Positions 4,467 to 63,104 of a stretch of 64,000 nt of DNA are shown piece after piece. Source of the DNA: Nitrospirota bacterium (GTDB lineage: Bacteria; Nitrospirota; Thermodesulfovibrionia; Thermodesulfovibrionales; Dissulfurispiraceae); the NCBI GenBank assembly GCA_040758355.1, contig JBFLWF010000009.1, positions 1 through 64,000 of the forward strand, in the 5' to 3' direction. The translations under genes were made by a program, and so were the position numbers. The notes beneath the pieces were generated by a model, which ran no database searches, was not told the origin of the DNA, and saw nothing but the letters and a program-made list of their open reading frames with translations. The first letter of the stretch is position 1. Each line of letters begins with the position of its first letter.

Positions 4467-4938
4467 TTTTTAATATCTCCAGAATAAGCGCATCTTTTAA
4501 ATAGAAACCTACTTCTTTTAATTTGTCCATTAGAGGTTTTATCTGTGTTAGATGACCTGCTTTTTTGGCTTTTACCAAAACGCCTGCAGTTCCTGTTAAT
4601 TTGAATTCTTGAAGTTTAGCAATCCTTCTTGCGAGGGAATCGTCAATAACGAGAAGGGGATTATTTTCCTGACAGCCCAAGGCCAAAACTTCGGCTTCTC
4701 CATTTCCCAGATCTGGAATTATTTTTATAAATGCAGGAACAACTACATTTTTTACTGTTATCCAACTGTAGTCTTCTATCTCAGGCACATCTTCGCCAAC
4801 CGTTTTACCTTCCTTTAGCTCATTTACCACCGCCTCTGGAATAACAATATTTCCATAAAGCTTTTCAAGAATACGAATACAGCCAAGCCGGTGAAGATAA
4901 AAAAGAGGCGATGTATTAACAATTACCGTTTCATGCAT
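4453..4938 (-). CDS. PIN-domain protein, DUF3368-like (putative toxin)
   Basis: IVNTSPL...IPEAV--E...GEAE-LAL...IDD-LARR-A...TGTAG pattern. Confidence 0.8.
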   Translation of the reverse strand: MHETVIVNTSPLFYLHRLGCIRILEKLYGNIVIPEAVVNELKEGKTVGEDVPEIEDYSWITVKNVVVPAFIKIIPDLGNGEAEVLALGCQENNPLLVIDDSLARRIAKLQEFKLTGTAGVLVKAKKAGHLTQIKPLMDKLKEVGFYLKDALILEILKNAGE

Positions 4939-5185
4939 TCTGAATATCCTGCTGCAATTCTTCAGGACTTAATTCAAAAATAGGCACACCGTATCGTGAG
5001 AGTGATTGCAGAAAACTTACTCTTGGAATACCTGCAAGTTGAGCGGCCCGTCCTGAAGACAATCTGCGCATCTGGTACAGATGAACAGCAGCCAGCATAC
5101 GGATTTCTCTTGAAAACTCTTCAGAGGTTTCCTTTAACGAGATTAACACTTCATCGGGGATATCCAAAACTATTTTTTCCATCAT
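4931..5185 (-). CDS. UPF0175-family protein (putative antitoxin)
   Basis: LSSGRAAQLAGIPRVSF motif; translationally coupled upstream of the PIN gene. Confidence 0.85.
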   Translation of the reverse strand: MMEKIVLDIPDEVLISLKETSEEFSREIRMLAAVHLYQMRRLSSGRAAQLAGIPRVSFLQSLSRYGVPIFELSPEELQQDIQNA

Positions 5186-5200
5186 GCACCTCTCTGGTGT

Positions 5201-5899
5201 TTATTTGTTTTCACTTTCAGTTTTTTCGATATTTTCTTTTTTTATAATTTTAGAATCACCGTCTTGGTTGTGCTGAGAATGATATTTACCATATGGCAAT
5301 GAAGACATCGTCATAAAATTTGCTTGTCTTGCTACGGGCATATAATCAGCGGCTGCCGTTTGGACGGCTGTTAGAACTACTTTAACAAGTAAGCCCGCTA
5401 ACCCACCGGCACCGCCATCGCTTCCAGTGGTATCAAGCACCATAGTCCCATCATATTTCCATAAATTTTCTCCAGAAATAGTAGACTTTAGTACACAATC
5501 TACACTAACTTTCACATTGCCGCCTATAACATAATAAGATGTATCCCACTTTAAAACTTTGATATACATTACGGCATCAGCACCAAAATATTGCCTAAAC
5601 TTCTGTGGAGGAGTATTTATTAGCAACTCTGTATCATAAAATCCTTCGTTCCTTAATATCTCCGATGTAACCTCCATGGGGAATACATAATAACCCATTA
5701 AACTAAGTGGTTCTGCCACTGTAACGCTATAGTATTCTTTTGCATCAGATGCCGTGGTCAGATTTATAGGGGGTAAAACTAAAATTGACAAAGGGTGTTC
5801 ATTATACATGTGAGGGAAAGCCTCTTTTTTCGTTGTATAGCTTGCGCACCCTGCAGTAAACATTAACACAAATAATATTAGTACTTTAAAGAGACGCAT
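5201..5899 (-). CDS. GNA1162/DUF799-like lipoprotein
   Basis: Lipobox TAGC; SILVLPP-N, GYYVFP and FGADAV motifs; usual partner of DUF4810/CsgG. Confidence 0.8.
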   Translation of the reverse strand: MRLFKVLILFVLMFTAGCASYTTKKEAFPHMYNEHPLSILVLPPINLTTASDAKEYYSVTVAEPLSLMGYYVFPMEVTSEILRNEGFYDTELLINTPPQKFRQYFGADAVMYIKVLKWDTSYYVIGGNVKVSVDCVLKSTISGENLWKYDGTMVLDTTGSDGGAGGLAGLLVKVVLTAVQTAAADYMPVARQANFMTMSSLPYGKYHSQHNQDGDSKIIKKENIEKTESENK

Positions 5900-6303
5900 T
5901 ATATACCCTCCTTTTTCTTTGCTGTTTCAGAACTGCTAATGTTGGCATTACTCGGTTTGTCACTTTTATCTATATATGATTTAAGGTTTTGCATAAACAC
6001 AGCCGATTCTGGGTAGGCTTTTTCCTCGAGGTCAAAATATTTTAACGCCTCATCCTTTTTCCCGTCCTTTAAAAGGATAAATCCATATTCACAATAAATA
6101 CCAGGAGGAACCCGCAAGTCTTTTTCTTTAGAATTTTCCATGATGGCTACAAGCATTTCTTTGTGTTTTTGCAAGTTTTCATCTGTAGGGTCTTTTTTAT
6201 ACTTGTAAAGCGAAAGGGGATACCGCTCCCAATTGTATAATTGCTGTTTAGCGCAGCCTGACATTAAAAAACCGATTAAAAGGAAAAGAAGCAACTTTTT
6301 CAT
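5899..6303 (-). CDS. DUF4810-like TPR lipoprotein
   Basis: Lipobox MSGC; LY-W--Y, VPPG---EYG and E---YPES motifs. Confidence 0.8.
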   Translation of the reverse strand: MKKLLLFLLIGFLMSGCAKQQLYNWERYPLSLYKYKKDPTDENLQKHKEMLVAIMENSKEKDLRVPPGIYCEYGFILLKDGKKDEALKYFDLEEKAYPESAVFMQNLKSYIDKSDKPSNANISSSETAKKKEGI

Positions 6304-40442: not shown

Positions 40443-40799
40443 TCAACACGCCATAAGGTTTATATCATACCCATGCAACTGAAAGGCAAACCGCAAGTCC
40501 CTCCTCTGTTCCGAAGCAAGGGATGCATATATCTCCTTCACCTTTTCTCCGGAGCGCTGTGTGCAATTATATTTATAGAGGTTATCCTTTACATCTTGTG
40601 ACAGATGGGTGTCATTGAGTATTTTGCTCAAATCACCCGATTCGCAGAGCATTTTATAAAGCCCTTCCCTATTGCTCCCGAAGAAGTAACCCTTGCCATG
40701 CTTGGTAACCACAAAGGTATCAGAACAGCCCCAAAGGACGATTAAGCTTAACAGCGCAGTTAGCAGTGTCAATAATTTTATATTCTTTGCGCTCTTCAT
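40443..40799 (-). CDS. Cys-containing lipoprotein; possible Cys-Sec readthrough to 40407
   Basis: Lipobox LWGC; ends ...INLMAC-TGA followed by a SECIS-like hairpin. Confidence 0.75.
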   Translation of the reverse strand: MKSAKNIKLLTLLTALLSLIVLWGCSDTFVVTKHGKGYFFGSNREGLYKMLCESGDLSKILNDTHLSQDVKDNLYKYNCTQRSGEKVKEIYASLASEQRRDLRFAFQLHGYDINLMAC

Positions 40800-41305
40800 T
40801 TTTTACCTCCCAATAGTTTTAAAATTTTCTCCTTCATCTGGGGAGAATCCCACTCCCTTTCACCCATAATCTTTTCTATTACGACCCCGTTTCTGTCTAT
40901 TAAAAAGGTTGTTGGAAGCCCTAATACAGCATACTCATCAAAGGAAACAGCCTTGTCTTTATCCATGAGTACGGGGAATGTGAGCTTAAGTTCCCTTGCA
41001 AAGGACTTCACAGGTTTTTCCGATGCATCCACAGATACTGCGAGGACAACAAGACCTTTATCCTTGTATTCATTGTAGAGATTATTCAGAGACGGCATCT
41101 CTGCCCTGCATGGGCCGCACCACGTTGCCCAGAAATTGAGAAGAACAGCCTTGCCCCTGAATTCCGAGAGATTCACTTTTTTGCCATTGATGTCATTCAG
41201 CGTAAAATCAGGGGCACTCCCTTGTGCCGCAGAGACAGGATTCGAAAGGATGGTACATAAAGCCAAAAGAGCGATTAGTGTAAGGAAAAGCCTGAACTTC
41301 ACCAT
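40796..41305 (-). CDS. TlpA/ResA-family thiol:disulfide oxidoreductase
   Basis: APDFTL, NFWATWCGPC--EMP and LPTTFLID motifs; signal anchor. Confidence 0.92.
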   Translation of the reverse strand: MVKFRLFLTLIALLALCTILSNPVSAAQGSAPDFTLNDINGKKVNLSEFRGKAVLLNFWATWCGPCRAEMPSLNNLYNEYKDKGLVVLAVSVDASEKPVKSFARELKLTFPVLMDKDKAVSFDEYAVLGLPTTFLIDRNGVVIEKIMGEREWDSPQMKEKILKLLGGKK

Positions 41306-41424
41306 GCCACCTCCCACAAGTGCATAGTTTATTAATTTATAAACAGTATAGCACTTAGTTTGTGAAAAAACAATGAACGAACTAATGCGAGTGCGGGAAT
41401 AAAGCGGAGACTGTGAAGGATAAA

Positions 41425-41473: not shown

Positions 41474-42988
41474 TTAGAATAAGACATCAAAGGTCAGGTA
41501 GATGTCTGTCGCTTTGTCAACTACCTCATGGAATACACCCGCGCCAGTCCCTGTTTGTCTTAAATCGGAAATTTTCTGTGGTGCGCCGACCCAGTTATTG
41601 CTTCCAGTGTATTTGAAGTCATAGTACTGATAGCCGAGCCTGAAGAAAGCCTTGCCTCTCTTAGCAATAGGCTTCTTACTGAGTTCCTGGATAAGATAAA
41701 CCTCGTAAACATTGCCTCTTGTGCCGAGCTTGCCTGTCCATATGTCGTCATTTGCAGGAACGAATGTTATCCAGTTCTTTGAGCCGTGGTTGTATTCTGC
41801 TCCGATCTTTGTGCCTGTGGATTTAATGTCATACCTGCCGCCGAGATAGAAGGCATTTCCAGTACGTGATTTTTTGCCTTCGACAGTGTCCCACATTAAT
41901 CCGAAAGAGTTACCATCTGCGAATGGTCCCATAGAGTTAGGATTGGGACGTGTTTTGCTGATAGCGCCAGATGCGAAGAGATTGAGGTCTCCGACCTTGC
42001 CCATAGCTGTCACACCATACCAATCTATCTCGCCCAAATTTGTATTCGCGTTTGCGGTTAGGTTATCTGGGCGGAAAAATATATTAGAGCCTCTGTTCCA
42101 GTTGAGTTCGACATGGAAGTTATCGGTATCGTAAGGAACCACATCTAAGCCGAACATGGATGTATCTTTAAGATTATTGTTCTGCGGTCTGAATCCGCTG
42201 TCCAAGCCTTTCCCGTAACAGAATTTTGCATAGGCGCCGGGAAGGGCATCTATGTCAGGGGCATAACCTAATGTTAAACCATCAAATGCATAATCAACCA
42301 ATAAAGAGGGAACTCCTGCTGTTCCTGTTTTTTCGGTATTCATCCTCAGGTTTTGCGGGATGCCGCCTGTTGATGGCCTTCTACCAATGGAGAACCATAC
42401 CGGTGCGCCGCCAATATTGCTCCACGTTGCATATGCCTGGTCAACCCTGAGGGTATTGTCCTGTGGAATGTGGCTGGTTGTTCCATCAAATACGGTCCTG
42501 TCAGCAAAGAAGGCATTGTTTGTTACGGGGTTGGCATTACCCATTCCCCATACCTTGTACATGAGGAGCCTTGCCTTGACATTAATGTCTTCTGTTGCCT
42601 TTGCATTCAAATTAAGTCCAAAGCGATTGGTGAATAGAGAGTCATTCTTTACATCTCTTCCTGCAGTTGCATTAACTGCCGAACCGTCTGCATTGAAGAC
42701 CCGTGCATCGTGCGTTTTACCGCTTAAGCTGTCAATCCTTGCCCTGAAGTCTCCACCAATCTCCAGCCATGAAGGCCCTGCGGCTTGTTCAGCCTTTTTC
42801 TCAACAACCGTGATTCTTTCCTCCTTTGCGGTCTCTTTCTGCTGCATCTCCTGCATCTGCTGTTTCAGGCGATCGAGCTCTTTTGAAAGCGCCTCGATCT
42901 TCTGAAGAAGGTCGCCCTGGTCGGCAGCAAATGCGGGGAGAGGAAGTAGAAAAGAGAGTGAAAGGAGAACTGCCAAAAACTTCTTCAT
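41474..42988 (-). CDS. DUF3373-like outer-membrane beta-barrel protein
   Basis: Signal peptide, coiled coil, GDFR-R-D, IGRRPST-G-P, EYNHGSK-W, C-terminal Phe. Confidence 0.8.
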   Translation of the reverse strand: MKKFLAVLLSLSFLLPLPAFAADQGDLLQKIEALSKELDRLKQQMQEMQQKETAKEERITVVEKKAEQAAGPSWLEIGGDFRARIDSLSGKTHDARVFNADGSAVNATAGRDVKNDSLFTNRFGLNLNAKATEDINVKARLLMYKVWGMGNANPVTNNAFFADRTVFDGTTSHIPQDNTLRVDQAYATWSNIGGAPVWFSIGRRPSTGGIPQNLRMNTEKTGTAGVPSLLVDYAFDGLTLGYAPDIDALPGAYAKFCYGKGLDSGFRPQNNNLKDTSMFGLDVVPYDTDNFHVELNWNRGSNIFFRPDNLTANANTNLGEIDWYGVTAMGKVGDLNLFASGAISKTRPNPNSMGPFADGNSFGLMWDTVEGKKSRTGNAFYLGGRYDIKSTGTKIGAEYNHGSKNWITFVPANDDIWTGKLGTRGNVYEVYLIQELSKKPIAKRGKAFFRLGYQYYDFKYTGSNNWVGAPQKISDLRQTGTGAGVFHEVVDKATDIYLTFDVLF

Positions 42989-43017
42989 AAACACCCCCTG
43001 TTAAAATTTTGTAAACA

Positions 43018-56424: not shown

Positions 56425-56709
56425 TTAGCAGCCTTCTGCCTTTCTAAAATCCGTGGCTACATTCTTTCCGCCTTTGCTTTCGTATTTGCCTTTGACCTTA
56501 TCGCCAACGCTGTATTTGCTAAGCTTTCCTTTGTCTTCCAGTGTTAGTGTTACGTCTTTGCCATCGCTGTCTGTGACAACGACCGTACCGGCGCCGGAGT
56601 CTATGTTCTTGATCGTGCCTTTGATTTTTTCTGCTGCAATTGCAAGCCCTATAAGCATTGCAATGCACAGGATCGTCCCTAAAAGAACCGTTACTGTTTT
56701 TGATCTCAT
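56425..56709 (-). CDS. Small exported beta-rich (OB-like) protein ending in EGC
   Basis: Signal peptide (AIA-A); GTIKNID---GTVVV...VGDKV---Y pattern; C-terminal Cys. Confidence 0.75.
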   Translation of the reverse strand: MRSKTVTVLLGTILCIAMLIGLAIAAEKIKGTIKNIDSGAGTVVVTDSDGKDVTLTLEDKGKLSKYSVGDKVKGKYESKGGKNVATDFRKAEGC

Positions 56710-56765: not shown

Positions 56766-58418
56766 TTAGAATTTAAACCATTCAATGGATTTCTGTATTT
56801 TAGAGCTTATTCCTGCAAGCCCTGATGCAGCATCTTTTACCTGGCCGATAGCCTCGGTTGTGCGGCTGACGGCTGATGAGATGTTGGTTATGTTATGCGT
56901 AATTTCCTCTGCCGCTGCTGACTGCTCTTCGGATGCAGCGGCAATCCTCTGGACCATATCCATCGCATTGGAGGATGCCGATACGATGGAGTCCAGAGAC
57001 TGGCTTGCAGCCTTCGAGAGATCGAGTCCTTTGTCCACTTCTGCACTTCCACTCTTCATTGCATCTACAGACCGTTTTGCCTCTGCCTGAATTACGGATA
57101 TCCTCTGTGTAATATCCTGCGTTGCCTTTCCTGTTCTTTCCGCGAGTTTTCTGACCTCGTCAGCCACAACCGCAAAGCCCCTTCCCTGCTCTCCTGCCCT
57201 TGCAGCCTCAATGGCAGCATTTAAGGCCAGAAGATTGGTCTGGTCAGCTATGTCGCTGATAATTGCAGCTATCTCGCCTATCTGTACAGAACTTGCATCC
57301 AGCTCTTCGATGATCTTTGTGGTATCTTTAACATTCTCTACAATGTTGTACATTCCATGGGTGGTCTTTTCTACAACCGATTTCCCCTTCGTGGCCTCTT
57401 CTGATGAATTTCTCGATGCATCAGCAGCCTGAGCAGCATTTTTTGCCACATCCATTATTGTCTGTGACATTTCCGTTGCTGCTGTTGCCACCTGCTGTGC
57501 CTGCAGGGATTGTTCGTTTGCCGACCTGCTCAGGTCTTCTGCAGTGGTCGAAAGTGCTCCGGACGAAGAGAGGAGGTTTTGCATATCAGCCTTTATATCG
57601 CCTATTATGGCGGTTATTCTACGGGACATGGTCGTAAAGTCTTTCAGCATCATCCCGATCTCATCCTTGCGGTTTATTTCTATGTCAGCGGCGCTGAAGT
57701 CTCCATCCGCCATTGCCCGCGACTTTTGCGATACCAATGCTACCGGAGAGATTACGGATGAAGACAGAAATTTTGCAATGAGTACGAGTAAGGCAACAAA
57801 CACAACGCCTCCTGCTACAAAGCTCCATCCCACGATTTTTCCCTCTTTTTTCAAGGCGCCAACCATTTTAGGGACATTTGCCCTTGCCTTTTCAACAGTA
57901 TGCCCTGTTTCTTCTAAAATAGTGTTGTACCTTTCAGCCTGGATTCCGCCTGCTATCTCTTTTGCCTTTTCTATATTACCGGCAAATATCAATGGTATTA
58001 ATTCCTTATCCCGTGTATCCTTGAAGGCATTCCATGCTTCCCGGGCTTTTGCTATTGATGGGGATTCGGCTGAAAGATTAGCAGCGCTCAAAGACTTCGC
58101 TATTTTGTCAAAAAGCTCATCTATTCGTTCTGTCATATCCTCTATATCATCTTTAATATCCTCTAACTTTTCCCTGTCCTTTTCTATCATCATACTTAAG
58201 AGTTTAGAGCGAACAAGAGTGAGATTGTATCGCTGCCTCGCAATGTCGTCGGCTACAATCATGCTTTTTTCTATTTGTGCATAGGCATCTCCGCCAACCT
58301 GAACCCTGTTAAAGAATATCTGGCCTATGGATATGCCAATTACTGCAAAGCCAATAAGGGCACCGAAAACAATGTACAGCTTTTTCTTGAGGCTCATGTC
58401 TTTAAACTTTTGAAACAT
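56766..58418 (-). CDS. Methyl-accepting chemotaxis protein (periplasmic 4HB sensor, HAMP)
   Basis: Two TM helices, [45 protein letters not shown]. Confidence 0.96.
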
Positions 58419-58568
58419 CTCTCCCCCCCAATAAAGTTTTTTATAAAGAGTTTTTAAAGTATAAGAGTTTAGATTCTTCTTAAGAAAGAAATTAATAATT
58501 TATTTACAATAGTTATAGCACAGCAATTTTTATATAGTCAAATACAATAGTGATATGCAATTTACAGT

Positions 58569-58609
58569 CCTAAAAATAAGGCTGAGGGGGCCTCAGCCTT
58601 ATTTTTAGG
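58569..58609. terminator. Terminator after the first seleno-rhodanese gene
   Basis: CCTAAAAATAAGGCTGAGG-GGG-CCTCAGCCTTATTTTTAGG. Confidence 0.75.
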
Positions 58610-58621
58610 ATATCAGATGAT

Positions 58622-59971
58622 TTATTCCTTGAATATTCCGTATGTCCCGTTGCTCTCAACCTTGATGACAGCATTGAGAAAGAGCGCCTTATATCCTGCA
58701 TCCTTCAGGGTATGGTATACCATTTCTGCCCGCGCCCCGGTTGTACAGTGGATAATTATTTCTCTATCCTTCGGGATCTCGGAGAGGCGCGATGCTGCGT
58801 CTTTTGCAGGTATATTTTTAGCGCCTTTTATTATTCCCCTCATTGTTTCGTCCTTATCTCTGACATCGAGGATCAATTTATCAGGTGGTAATGTCTCTGC
58901 AATTTTCTTGAAATCATCAACAGAGATCTCCCCCGGCTTCGGTTTGGGCACATATACAATCGCTGTCTTAAGCTCATTGCTCGCAACAGGGTTTCCTGCC
59001 TTCTTCCATGCCTCGATGCCGCCTGCAAGGTATGCGAGGTTGCTGTAGCCCCACTTCCTTACTATTTTAAACGCATCTTCAGAAAGTTTCTGCGTGTCGC
59101 AGCAAATAATAATAGGAGCTTTTTTGTCAGCAGGGAACCCATCCTTTGCCTGTGCAAGCTCGCTTAAAAAAATTGATACGGCACCTTTAATATGCTCCTT
59201 CTTTGCCGCGTCTGCTGGCCTTATATCAATGAGCACATGAGGGATGTTCTTATCCATGGAATCCTTGAGATTTATAACAGAGGAAGCTACAAGATTGCCC
59301 TTCTTCTTCCACTCCGGCATACCGTCGATGAATACCTTCACATTTGTGTAGCCTGACTTTTCTGCCTTACTGGCAGAGGATGGGCTGAGTCTTCATGTAG
59401 GGCCGGCGCAGTAGAAAATGAGCAGTTTATCTTTTTCCTTTGGAAGTTTATCTATATTCTTTTCAAATTCAGCGTCATAGATCGATATTGCTCCGGGTAT
59501 GTGGCCTTCATGGAATTTCGGTGCAGGCCTTGAATCAATGAGTACAAAGTCGCCTTGAGTTTCTATGAGCCTTGAGAGTTCATCAATCTTAATCTTTTTT
59601 TCATCAGGTAGCGTTGCAGGCTGTTTAACTGCAACGTACGCGGCATACAGGATCCCGTCCCGCTCAGTGAGGGTAATGGCAATCTCCTTTTCCTTAGGGA
59701 TTTTTTCAAGTTCGCTTATTCCTTTTACCTTTGTATTGTCATCGTATTTTACAATCCATGAGGCAGGGCCGATCTGGATCTGTATCGTCTCTGCACGATC
59801 AGACACACCGACCATAGTACCCATTAATGTTTTTTCGTCCGGTGCGTGGCATTGCTTGCATGGCGGCGCTATCTTCGGTTTTTGTGCCTGCGCCATACTT
59901 GCGGAATATGTCAGGAGCAGGCTGGCTGTTGCAAGGACGACGATTGCAATTAATAATAACTTTTTTCTCAT
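58622..59971 (-). CDS. Exported multi-rhodanese selenoprotein with CxxCH heme motif (copy 1; Sec UGA at 59395-59393)
   Basis: ORFs 59393-59971 and 58622-59341 are in frame; readthrough gives YCAGPT-U-RLSPSSASKAEKSGYTNVKVF, completing a rhodanese domain; SECIS-like hairpin at 59377-59361. Confidence 0.88.
59361..59377 (-). promoter_or_regulatory. Bacterial SECIS-like hairpin (copy 1)
   Basis: UCUGCC-AGUAA-GGCAGA; loop begins 21 nt after the UGA. Confidence 0.7.
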
Positions 59972-60095
59972 ATATCCCCCAGATTTTTTTGTTTGCCTGC
60001 AAAGGCAGACAGGTGATCCTATATTTTAAATTTGCAAGGGAAATATATCATAAAACTTCAGAATTGTAAATTATAATACGTAGAATTGGGGTAAA

Positions 60096-60125
60096 ACAGG
60101 CGGCCAGCCAAAGCTGGCCGCCTGT
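60096..60125 (-). terminator. Terminator between the two seleno-rhodanese genes
   Basis: ACAGGCGGCCAGC-TTTG-GCTGGCCGCCTGT followed by TTT on the minus strand. Confidence 0.75.
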
Positions 60126-60131
60126 AGAGGA

Positions 60132-61493
60132 TTATTCCTTGCTTATCTCGTACTTGCCGTCTTTGTCGATTTTGATATTGGCATTGAGGAATCTTACTTT
60201 ATATCCTGCTTCCTTTAGTGTGTGGAATGCCATTTCAGCCCTGACCCCTGTTGAGCAATGGGCGATTAGCTCTTTGTCCTTTGGCATTTCTGAAAACCTT
60301 GACTTCATGTCCTGGGCGGGAATATTTTTTGCCCCTTTGAGCATCCCCTGCATTGCCTCATCTTCATCCCTTACATCGAGGATGAATTTATCTGCCGGCG
60401 ATGTCTCTGCGATCTTCTTAAAATCTTCAACGCCTATCTCACCGGGTCTTGGCTTCGGAACATATACAATAGCTGTTTTGAGGTCTCCGCTTGCAACAGG
60501 ATTCCCTGTCTTTTTCCATGCCTCGATGCCGCCGTCAAGCACAGAGGTGTTTGTATATCCCCAACTTCTTACAACCTTAAATGCATCGCCGGCAGTTTTT
60601 GCATCATCTGCATAAAGGACTATCGGCGCTTTTTTGTCAGCAGGGAATCTGTCTTTTGCAGTGCTGATTTCCTTTGACGGAATAGATACAGCGCCTTTTA
60701 TGTGGCCTTTTTGGGCATCATCCGGGGGCCTTAAATCAATAATAACCTGCGGCATGTCCTTATCTATGTTCTCCTTCACATATTGAGAAGTGGAGACTAC
60801 AAGATTTCCTGCTTTTTTCCATGCAGGCATCCCATCGTGAAATATCTTTACATTTGTATATCCGAGTTTCTCCGCCTTACCGGCAGAGGAAGGAGAGAGC
60901 ATTCAGGTGACTCCGCCGCAGTAAAAGATGAGGAGATTGTCCTTCTCTTGTGGAAGCCTGTCGATGTTTTTATCGAAATCGGCATCATAGATAACTATAG
61001 AGCCAGGGATGTGACCTTCATGATACCTCGGAGCAGGACGGGAGTCTACAATGACATATCTGCCTTTTTCAGTCCCAATATCAATAAGCTTTGTCAGCTC
61101 TTCGGTCTTTATCTTCTTCTCTTCAGGGACTTTTGCCGGCTGCTTCACGGATATGCTCAGCGCATAAATGGAGCCGTCCTTTTCCTCATAGGCAACCGCA
61201 ATCTCTTTTTCCTTTGGAACCTTGTATATTGGCGGCTGCCAGCCTGTTAACTTTGTTTTGTCATCGAACTTCACGAGCCATACTGCCGGGCCGATCTGGA
61301 TCTGCAGTGTTTCCGCCTTTCCTGACGCACTTGCCAGACTTCCCCTGAGGATTTTCTCATCAGGTGCGTGGCATTGCTTGCACGGCGGCGCTATCTTCGG
61401 TTTTTGTGCCTGCGCCATACTTGTGGAATATGTTAGGAATAGCCCTGCTGCCACAAGGACAGCGATTGCAATTAATAATAACTTCTTTCCCAT
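60132..61493 (-). CDS. Exported multi-rhodanese selenoprotein with CxxCH heme motif (copy 2; Sec UGA at 60905-60903)
   Basis: ORFs 60903-61544 and 60132-60902 abut in frame: YCGGVT-U-MLSPSSAGKAEKLGYTNVKIF; start ATG 61493 with a GGGGGA RBS; SECIS-like hairpin at 60888-60870. Confidence 0.88.
60870..60888 (-). promoter_or_regulatory. Bacterial SECIS-like hairpin (copy 2)
   Basis: CUCUGCC-GGUAA-GGCGGAG; loop begins 21 nt after the UGA. Confidence 0.72.
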
Positions 61494-61683
61494 ACATCCC
61501 CCTTTGTGTTTGATCTTCCACGCCAAAGGCATGGATTTAGGCAATCTATATTTACAATTATAAGTTTAGGAAAAGACGGTTAACATGTCAATAGATTTTT
61601 AAACTTATAAACTTATAGACAGCTAAATTGGGCGATTTTGCAAGGCAGGCACTGCTCCAAGACTTTAAAAAGTCCTCGTTCAT

Positions 61684-61875
61684 GTGCATATGAGAGATAA
61701 CAAATGCATCATCCATCAAGTATCCAATGTAGTAGATGACGGATACAAGATAAAGTTTTATACAAGTGCGGAGTTTAAAGTCTTTCTGCAGCACCTGCCT
61801 TGCAAATCTGAATATAGAATCGCTCAACTCAGGAGACAGATAAGCCAGTTGTTTAGAAGAGATGGATTTGGTTAG
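61684..61875 (+). CDS. Possible small hypothetical protein
   Basis: 63-aa ORF upstream of moaC on the same strand; no motif recognised. Confidence 0.3.
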   Translation: MHMRDNKCIIHQVSNVVDDGYKIKFYTSAEFKVFLQHLPCKSEYRIAQLRRQISQLFRRDGFG

Positions 61876-62384: not shown

Positions 62385-63104
62385 TTACCCATGTGCTACT
62401 GAACTCAGCAGGTCTTTGAGTTCTTTTGCCTTTTTATCGCTGAGTTCCAGAAATTTAACAGCTACCTTAATATATTCAGAATCAATAAAGGCCTCTGCAG
62501 CCTGAATCCTGACAACGAATCCCTCCAGACCTGAAACCTTGCTGTTGTTGTCCATTTTTATATCGCATGCCAGTTTTTCGAATATCATGGGAATCGGGCT
62601 TTTTCTATGAACATTACAGAGGAAGCCGCCTATGCTTAGGTCCAGGAGATTTCCTCTGGAGACGAGGTCTCCAAACTGTAGAATAACTTCTCCGCTTAAA
62701 TCAAAGCGTTCGTACTGCCTCCTGTCAAATTTTCTGTTAACCTCTGCCATCTTTTGTATCAGTCCCTCGATGGTAAAGGGTTTTATGACATAACTGTTTA
62801 CGCCTGCCTGCATAGCCTGTATAACGTTCTCCTTCTCGTTTCTGGCTGTTACCATTATAAACGGCAGGTTTTTGAGAGCGGGATGGTTTCTTATCCAGCT
62901 TAATAATTCCGGCCCGTTCATGGATGGCATTTCCCAGTCGCATAAAATAAGGTCATATTTGTCTGTCTCCAACAAGGCTTGCGCTTCCTTGCCGTTGCTC
63001 GCTTCAAAAATCTCCACATTAGGGTGGTTTTTTTCGAGGCCGAATTTTATGAATCTCCGAACAGATGCCATATCATCAACAATCAGTATTTTATTCTTTG
63101 CCAT
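62385..63104 (-). CDS. CheY-like response regulator with C-terminal PilZ domain
   Basis: ILIVDD, CDWEMP-M-G, VTA and KPF receiver motifs; RRQYER and DLSIGG PilZ motifs. Confidence 0.88.
   Translation of the reverse strand: MAKNKILIVDDMASVRRFIKFGLEKNHPNVEIFEASNGKEAQALLETDKYDLILCDWEMPSMNGPELLSWIRNHPALKNLPFIMVTARNEKENVIQAMQAGVNSYVIKPFTIEGLIQKMAEVNRKFDRRQYERFDLSGEVILQFGDLVSRGNLLDLSIGGFLCNVHRKSPIPMIFEKLACDIKMDNNSKVSGLEGFVVRIQAAEAFIDSEYIKVAVKFLELSDKKAKELKDLLSSVAHG

Follow-up and report, generated by a model that had tools for sequence, protein, structure and literature searches.

The locus analysed here raises the question of whether four consecutive open reading frames (ORFs) in the genome of a Nitrospirota bacterium (family Dissulfurispiraceae) encode four small proteins or two selenoproteins and, in the second case, what such proteins might do. 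The stretch of DNA under study, called the window below, comprises 64,000 nucleotides (nt), positions 1 to 64,000 of contig JBFLWF010000009.1 (assembly GCA_040758355.1). Under translation table 11 the region of interest splits on the minus strand into ORFs at 58622-59341, 59393-59971, 60132-60902 and 60903-61544. An earlier note, made from the sequence alone, had proposed that these hide two tandem genes for exported selenoproteins, each with one in-frame TGA at an equivalent position. When the TGA is read through, two minus-strand frames take the place of the four ORFs; these frames, genes A and B (Table 1), are 66% identical over their full length and agree with that proposal. The TGA is very probably read as selenocysteine (Sec) in both genes. 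Our best explanation of the whole, namely two intact paralogous selenoprotein genes whose products would act on sulfur through a cysteine (Cys)/Sec pair and a haem, has in our estimate a probability of roughly 55%.

Reading of the in-frame TGA codons

Both TGAs occupy the sixth position of the active-site loop of the first rhodanese domain (C-x-G-x-T-U), five residues past the loop Cys, in the context YCAGPT-U-RLSPSS in gene A and YCGGVT-U-MLSPSS in gene B. The start of gene B was taken as the ATG, at the 61493 end, that opens a signal-peptide-like sequence; the ORF itself extends upstream to 61544. Past the TGA the frame runs on into rhodanese sequence, as had been noticed before, and the Pfam rhodanese family (PF00581; 164 and 171 bits for the two proteins, gathering score 22.2) matches three stretches in each protein, the best of which in gene A (residues 130-224) crosses the TGA. 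The three rhodanese domains expected from the sequence are therefore recovered in both proteins, and the third carries the expected HC(T/S)TG-R motif, as HCTTGAR in gene A and HCSTGVR in gene B. Across 36 aligned proteins (those of the window plus 34 full-length homologues) the first loop Cys, C188, never varies and C409 shows at least 90% conservation; the loop Cys of domain 2 is present in gene A (IIICCD, CC) and absent in gene B (LYADDAK). A full-length model of the gene A protein reaches a predicted local distance difference test (pLDDT) score of 86.9 and is confident except at residues 22-32; searched as a whole with Foldseek it retrieves generic multi-rhodanese enzymes only, with a template modelling (TM) score of about 0.2.

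A search of public proteins gave 795 matches at E <= 0.001 among 8000 candidates scored. The best 120 of these are mostly full-length proteins of about 450 amino acids (aa), while 21 of the 120 are pieces of about 256 aa that cover only the part after the TGA. In the alignment just described, Cys stands opposite the Sec in 32 of the 34 homologues. We also assembled 101 distinct family genes from relatives and public genomes, chosen by the presence of a C-x4-[C/U] loop, a choice that excludes forms without the second residue; the related public loci were found with an alignment of 14 closer Cys forms. At the Sec position these genes have TGA in 27 cases, TGC in 66 and TGT in 8. Within the order, 24 of 41 genomes contain a match, and the 29 matches divide into 23 with one TGA, one with four and five with none. 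In a sample of the phylum, 65 of 301 genomes match at E <= 1e-60, and a single TGA is found in 66 of the 71 matches.

Two relatives depart from this pattern. One, counted in the order among the matches with a single TGA (L039, G016:C10), is a CAGCH type without the C-x4-C loop; its TGA lies outside the loop, near the N-terminus at the junction between signal peptide and mature protein (…LTAF-U-QQAKP), and probably reflects an upstream stop followed by a later start. The other (L042 / L049, G006:C102, about 4828-6182) contains four TGAs in frame, one at each of the two loop positions (FY-U-GGYH-U) among them, and its frame changes further on; it may be a double-Sec loop like the UxxxxU of TsoB, or a decaying gene.

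The genome encodes the machinery for Sec insertion: selA, selB, selD and a tRNA-Sec with anticodon TCA were all detected above curated cut-offs. The selA gene lies on the same contig as the pair, about 14 kb past the end of the window (G000:C9:78293-79648). One in-frame TGA each is found in selD itself (L010, G000:C13:51565-52479) and in an FdhA-like molybdoenzyme gene (L156, G000:C3:41507-43033), which are further selenoprotein genes of this genome.

The earlier note had also described a conserved hairpin after each TGA, with a loop containing G-U that starts 21 nt downstream, and this description holds. The loops of both hairpins, which resemble a selenocysteine insertion sequence (SECIS), begin exactly 21 nt after the TGA (Table 1). 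The gene A hairpin has six standard pairs and an unpaired outermost C-A, and a weaker lower helix may extend the two structures to 59350-59391 (gene A) and 60860-60901 (gene B). The 48 nt from the Sec/Cys codon onward align without gaps in all 101 family genes, which allowed the structure to be followed column by column, with columns 18-24 and 30-36 forming the upper helix and columns 25-29 the loop. In the 27 TGA genes 92.6% of the upper-helix cells are paired, and five of the seven pairs show changes on both sides (for example CUGCC/GGCAG, CCGCC/GGCGG, UUACC/GGUAA). The whole structure is paired at 78.3%, against 35-44% in controls with slid partners. At least five consecutive pairs from the loop outward, in the same register, are present in 23 of the 27 TGA genes and in one of the 74 Cys genes, the latter being a close relative of the Sec forms. 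At least 90% of the TGA genes have G at loop column 26. The hairpins of the genome's selD and FdhA-like genes are similar, being short and GC-rich, with GUC loops whose GU falls at +21 to +24 (G at +21 and +23); the hairpin of the rhodanese genes has its G at +26, and some relatives within the family have a GUC loop as in selD and the FdhA-like gene.

Some results speak against this hairpin. The folding energies of the two window hairpins are not significantly different from those of shuffled sequences (z -1.5 for gene A, -1.2 for gene B). Against synonymous recoding, mean z is -1.10 for TGA genes and -0.73 for Cys genes, with a one-sided p of 0.019 that ignores kinship, since related sequences are not independent. 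A looser count, accepting any six of the seven pairs, also admits 21 of the 74 Cys genes, and the Sec and Cys genes come for the most part from separate lineages, which differ in their residues at this site. An Rfam scan of 58500-61700 with E up to 10 returned chance-level matches only and no SECIS family. Support for the hairpin thus comes from the comparison across genes and not from the energy of single hairpins.

Taken together, the Cys opposite the TGA, the conserved and co-varying hairpin and the complete Sec machinery argue for Sec insertion, as the earlier note had proposed when it suggested looking for such a Cys and for the sel genes. That the TGAs are instead true stops, leaving four small proteins or two decaying genes, is most improbable. 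Gene callers do split these genes, as the C-terminal pieces among the public matches attest, and the TGA of gene B is immediately followed by an ATG; but separate ORFs would mean a rhodanese domain broken within its active-site loop, 66 of 71 phylum matches retain the single TGA with both halves in frame and conserved, and Cys in the homologues, the co-varying hairpin and the machinery all count against it.

The arrangement is also found in independent assemblies. Contigs from three other studies (X2 record 3, X4 record 20, X5 record 25) span the junction between genes A and B, so the tandem pair is not an assembly artefact. Other contigs cover each TGA, and among the matches listed none has an alternative letter at either one. 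A contig of X5, from a hot-spring metagenome and of high depth, spans window positions 58699-60928 and carries four single-base indels relative to gene A, near 59185, 59595, 59830 and 59984, which mark either a frameshifted copy or contig errors.

The N-terminal module and its CxxCH motif

Both proteins start with a hydrophobic N-terminus that ends, as read by eye, in SMAQA followed by QK, and CKQCH comes next at residues 38-42, so that both show a signal-peptide-like leader and the CKQCH motif reported before. C38, C41 and H42 do not vary among the 36 aligned proteins. In 97 of the 101 family genes the motif is found where expected, as CX2CH in 95 and CX4CH in two; the four exceptions comprise two genes with a truncated N-terminus and two true haem-less forms that keep the OB domain.

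When residues 30-129 were modelled alone, with 44 sequences, the model (pLDDT 92.8) consisted of a short helix bearing CxxCH followed by a six-stranded barrel. The best Foldseek match of this domain is the periplasmic copper/silver chaperone CusF (E 5e-4, TM 0.54-0.71), with another such chaperone, SilF, also among the best fold matches, and these are followed by cold-shock and other OB-fold domains. A second structure search, independent of Foldseek, retrieved OB-fold proteins at Z 6-7.5, values that the tool's own note calls middling. The models thus support, at the level of fold, the OB-like domain that had been suggested.

Haem binding is predicted from the invariant CxxCH (or CX4CH), the export of the proteins and a maturation system of the ResB/CcsA type, of which the genome has two sets; cytochrome c maturation genes had been named earlier as something to look for. 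An exported CxxCH and a haem-attachment system are features of c-type cytochromes. A cytochrome c family or fold and a distal ligand are not apparent from Pfam, the OB-fold model or the alignment: the Pfam scan of both proteins gave no cytochrome family match, and the alignment of the N-terminal domain contains no invariant Met or His besides H42 that could serve as sixth ligand. Forms with the C-x4-U loop and an OB domain, behind a lipobox or a plain signal peptide, also exist without the haem motif. These observations weaken the case for a haem; and since haem-less forms keep the Sec loop, haem would be dispensable for the core function. The earlier claim that the proteins depend on haem is thus a prediction, supported by the invariant motif and the attachment systems and weakened by the missing cytochrome family and by the haem-less Sec-loop relatives.

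There is a slim chance that CxxCH is haem-free and that the CusF-like OB domain uses it to bind metal (Cu/Ag/Zn) or as a dithiol site, which would make the proteins metal-linked or thiol-disulfide rhodaneses. The fold matches to CusF and SilF and the lack of a cytochrome fold or family favour this idea; the invariant His after the second Cys and the CX4CH variants, both typical of haem c sites, go against it, as do the two ResB/CcsA sets.

Not far from the pair, between TolB and a gene for a methyl-accepting chemotaxis protein (MCP), the window contains a 94-aa exported ORF (56425-56709, minus strand) that ends in ...KAEGC, looks beta-rich by eye and belongs to no Pfam family. It was considered as a relative of the OB domain and rejected (hhalign probability 4.8%).

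Table 1. Positions in the window of the two genes and of the features assigned to them.
Feature	Position	Strand	Description
Gene A	58622..59971	-	449 aa, Sec193; exported CxxCH, OB-fold and three rhodanese domains
Gene B	60132..61493	-	453 aa, Sec197; paralogue of gene A
In-frame TGA, gene A	59393..59395	-	read as selenocysteine
In-frame TGA, gene B	60903..60905	-	read as selenocysteine; ATG directly 3'
SECIS-like upper hairpin, gene A	59360..59378	-	7-nt arms CUCUGCC/GGCAGAA; loop AGUAA at 59367-59371
SECIS-like upper hairpin, gene B	60870..60888	-	7 base pairs, CUCUGCC/GGCGGAG; loop GGUAA at 60877-60881
CKQCH, gene A (residues 38-42)	59846..59860	-	predicted haem c attachment site
CKQCH, gene B (residues 38-42)	61368..61382	-	predicted haem c attachment site
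OB-fold beta-barrel domain, gene A (about residues 46-118)	59618..59836	-	structure models and fold search
Promoter-like site, 5' of gene B	61563..61591	-	TTGACA-17-TAAACT; consensus match only
Promoter-like site, A-B spacer, 5' of gene A	60042..60070	-	TTTACA-17-TATATT with TG; consensus match only
Terminator-like hairpin and T-run, just 3' of gene A	58577..58595	-	consensus match only

Known rhodanese selenoproteins and the proposed chemistry

Rhodaneses with Sec have been catalogued before. A 2026 review (PMC13188914) distinguishes five rhodanese-like forms, form 1 with the motif UxxS, forms 2 and 4 with UxxG, form 3 with CxU and form 5, TsoB, with UxxxxU; the same early forms appear in a 2022 review (PMC9312934). 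Form 1, whose representative is WP_010941598.1 from Geobacter sulfurreducens (Zhang & Gladyshev 2005, cited from the tables of PMC13188914 and PMC9312934), appears to be the closest entry, judged by the UxxS motif alone, as the rhodanese Sec of the window proteins is followed by x-x-S (U-R-L-S in gene A, U-M-L-S in gene B). Relatives from Geobacteraceae, which are Sec lipoproteins, share the C-G-G-x-T-U-x-x-S loop, the OB domain and the three rhodanese domains. The Geobacteraceae TGA forms that we read have a lipobox, and their OB domain either lacks CxxCH or is missing altogether, whereas the window proteins combine CxxCH with a plain signal peptide.

Neither protein passed any NCBIfam model. 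The model for form 3 (NF041203; a single domain of about 126 aa with C-x-U) scored 91.6 and 77.9 bits against a cut-off of 115; the window proteins differ from it in their C-x4-U loop and four modules. The TsoB model (NF045694) matched domain 1 only (E 3e-21), at 75.1 and 74.5 bits against a cut-off of 805. According to PMC13188914, TsoB has the same four-residue gap between two chalcogen residues in its rhodanese loop; it differs in its DsbD-like part and in having Sec first, while the window proteins lack a DsbD part, have Cys first, and carry the haem motif where TsoB has its thiol-disulfide relay. The model for ExtH (NF040901), a Geobacter rhodanese-like lipoprotein, scored 21.9 bits with gene B against a cut-off of 200 and was not listed for gene A.

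A full-text literature search, with subscription papers and the 2005 original outside its scope, returned no description of a haem-motif Sec rhodanese. PMC1794560 (Zhang & Gladyshev 2006) names rhodanese in its references only, and the rhodaneses mentioned in papers on Pelobacter and Desulfurivibrio are unrelated. The opinion of the earlier note that this form is uncharacterised is thus half right: no description was found, but the class is catalogued and the family common, with members in 65 of the 301 phylum genomes. We regard the combination of CxxCH, OB domain, triple rhodanese and C-x4-U as a variant of a catalogued class, widespread and usually mis-annotated; what is new here is the form with the haem motif and the tandem arrangement of the two genes.

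By sequence, domain 1 is closest among single-domain proteins to BH2092 of Bacillus halodurans (PDB 3nhv, 3o3w; E 2e-10, 31% identity, root-mean-square deviation 1.5 Å), whose loop, Y-C-W-G-P-A-C, has Cys at both positions; it differs in being a cytoplasmic-type single domain from structural genomics, with neither Sec nor a haem motif. This C-W-G-P-A-C loop, the second nucleophile five residues past the loop Cys and the matching spacing in TsoB lead us to infer a redox-active Cys/Sec pair, and sulfane-sulfur handling in the periplasm with such a pair is the most likely function. Sulfane sulfur, drawn for instance from polysulfide or thiosulfate, would first be bound by the loop Cys as a persulfide, which the neighbouring Sec would then attack, freeing the sulfur or passing it on, with formation of a Cys-S-Se-Sec bond. 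Electrons to reopen this bond could come from the predicted covalent haem c. Another sulfur-carrying site, of the ordinary kind, would be provided by domain 3 (C-x-T-G-x-R), which might serve a Psr/Phs-type reductase encoded elsewhere in the genome. That the pair resolves the persulfide and is then re-reduced through the haem is a tentative suggestion, with the odds against it.

An analogy for the intermediate, Cys-S-(S/Se)-Se-Sec, is offered by MccSep, the pentahaem selenoenzyme of G. sulfurreducens, in which haem, Cys and Sec together reduce polysulfide (PMC13510729). Both systems are periplasmic and would combine haem c, Cys and Sec for S-S chemistry. The same paper describes five haems, an Ig-like domain and a Cys that ligates haem iron in MccSep, while the window proteins have one CxxCH on an OB fold together with rhodanese domains; no homology was found. 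By extension, the Cys-x4-Sec loop could work against the bound haem as a one-haem selenium-dependent reductase of persulfide or polysulfide (or selenite), convergent with MccSep, in which the loop Cys or Sec might ligate the haem iron and the tandem pair would be two tuned isoenzymes. We consider this quite unlikely.

Gene neighbourhoods and distribution

In relatives from the order, a single gene sits between a tolQRAB cluster and moaC with a response regulator; among the 14 order loci fetched, TolB is adjacent in five and MoaC in three. At this same place the window adds the second paralogue, the MCP gene and the 94-aa ORF, so that the neighbours of the pair are an MCP, TolQRAB, MoaC, a PilZ response regulator and housekeeping genes. 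The pair is flanked by the MCP gene (56766-58418, minus strand), which is absent at the corresponding position in a relative of the same genus (G003), and by the receiver-PilZ response regulator (62385-63104, minus strand).

Other lineages have different surroundings. In Geobacteraceae/Desulfuromonadales a Cys orthologue lies directly downstream of a DUF3373 outer-membrane protein (porin), in a cluster of 21 loci of which one representative was confirmed by Pfam. In some of these loci an octahaem cytochrome of the tetrathionate-reductase family follows the orthologue, and farther downstream come a PhsA/PsrA-like molybdoenzyme and an NrfD-type membrane subunit. A PhsA-like gene scoring below the model cut-off is present in this genome, on a different contig.

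The sulfur chemistry that we favour must be set against several facts. The window contains no sulfur-respiration neighbours of the pair, the genome's only DUF3373 gene (window 41474-42994, minus strand) lies 16 kb away from it, and no protein, selenium or haem data were found for any member of the family. An AhpC/redoxin-type gene (40796-41317, minus strand) comes after the DUF3373 gene. The earlier idea of transferases that couple sulfur or selenium chemistry to electron transfer is consequently favoured by the neighbourhoods of the Geobacteraceae Cys orthologues, finds nothing in the window itself, and is stated here as an inference.

These neighbourhoods are also compatible with simpler proteins. 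The polysulfide-sulfur transferase Sud of Wolinella and ExtH are, like the window proteins, of periplasmic rhodanese type, and are linked to polysulfide or selenite respiration; neither is known to contain a haem motif or Sec. Genes A and B could encode real selenoproteins that are sulfur carriers of this kind only, handing polysulfide sulfur to a Psr/Phs reductase with no redox turnover, the CxxCH haem having a structural or sensing role. Consistent with such carriers, Cys orthologues neighbour the PhsA/PsrA-like enzyme and NrfD, the haem-less forms keep the Sec loop, and the body of the protein matches no structures other than multi-rhodanese sulfurtransferases. The second nucleophile, Cys or Sec, is however conserved in nearly all members, which is no trait of simple carriers, and PMC13188914 has TsoB joining the same spacing to a DsbD-like reductase module. 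We hold the carrier explanation to be unlikely.

Distinctly less probable is a role in selenium handling, either periplasmic selenite reduction or selenium delivery, with intermediates of the selenotrisulfide type at the Sec/Cys pair. In Geobacter, both ExtH, which is rhodanese-like, and MccSep, a haem selenoenzyme, act on selenite (PMC13510729), and gene B has its weak likeness to ExtH; yet that score, 21.9 of 200 bits, falls far short of the cut-off, Cys forms occur widely in Betaproteobacteria and Geobacteraceae and lie beside PhsA/PsrA-like genes, and the pair has no selenium-specific neighbour within the window. Redox-active sulfane-sulfur handling thus stays our preferred reading.

In a quick maximum-likelihood tree, gene A groups with single copies from three other genomes, one of the same genus (support 95), while gene B is placed close to two other genera, in a region of low resolution. 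Since the two genes lie apart on the tree, the pair is not a recent duplication and appears to be old. On this tree the Sec/Cys state requires a minimum of two to three changes. In Geobacteraceae, 66 of 101 genomes contain a match; the best 45 matches have no stop, and 15 of 33 weaker ones have one TGA. Another tandem pair was seen in a genome of the same family (L182, G410:C40:8000-11735), where a CxxCH form that lacks the second Cys of the loop (CVGGCLSP) adjoins a haem-less Sec form (CGGVTUGMSP).

These results have a practical side, as gene callers halve members of this family, so that about one fifth of the best 120 public matches are C-terminal halves, and annotations and proteome databases consequently lack a periplasmic selenoprotein that is common among anaerobic bacteria of the sulfur cycle. 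Should the haem cooperate with the Cys/Sec pair, the family would represent, after MccSep, a second and simpler case of S-S chemistry by haem plus selenium, in a tractable protein of 50 kDa. The occurrence of Sec and Cys forms across lineages provides, in addition, a natural comparison of selenium with sulfur in a rhodanese loop.

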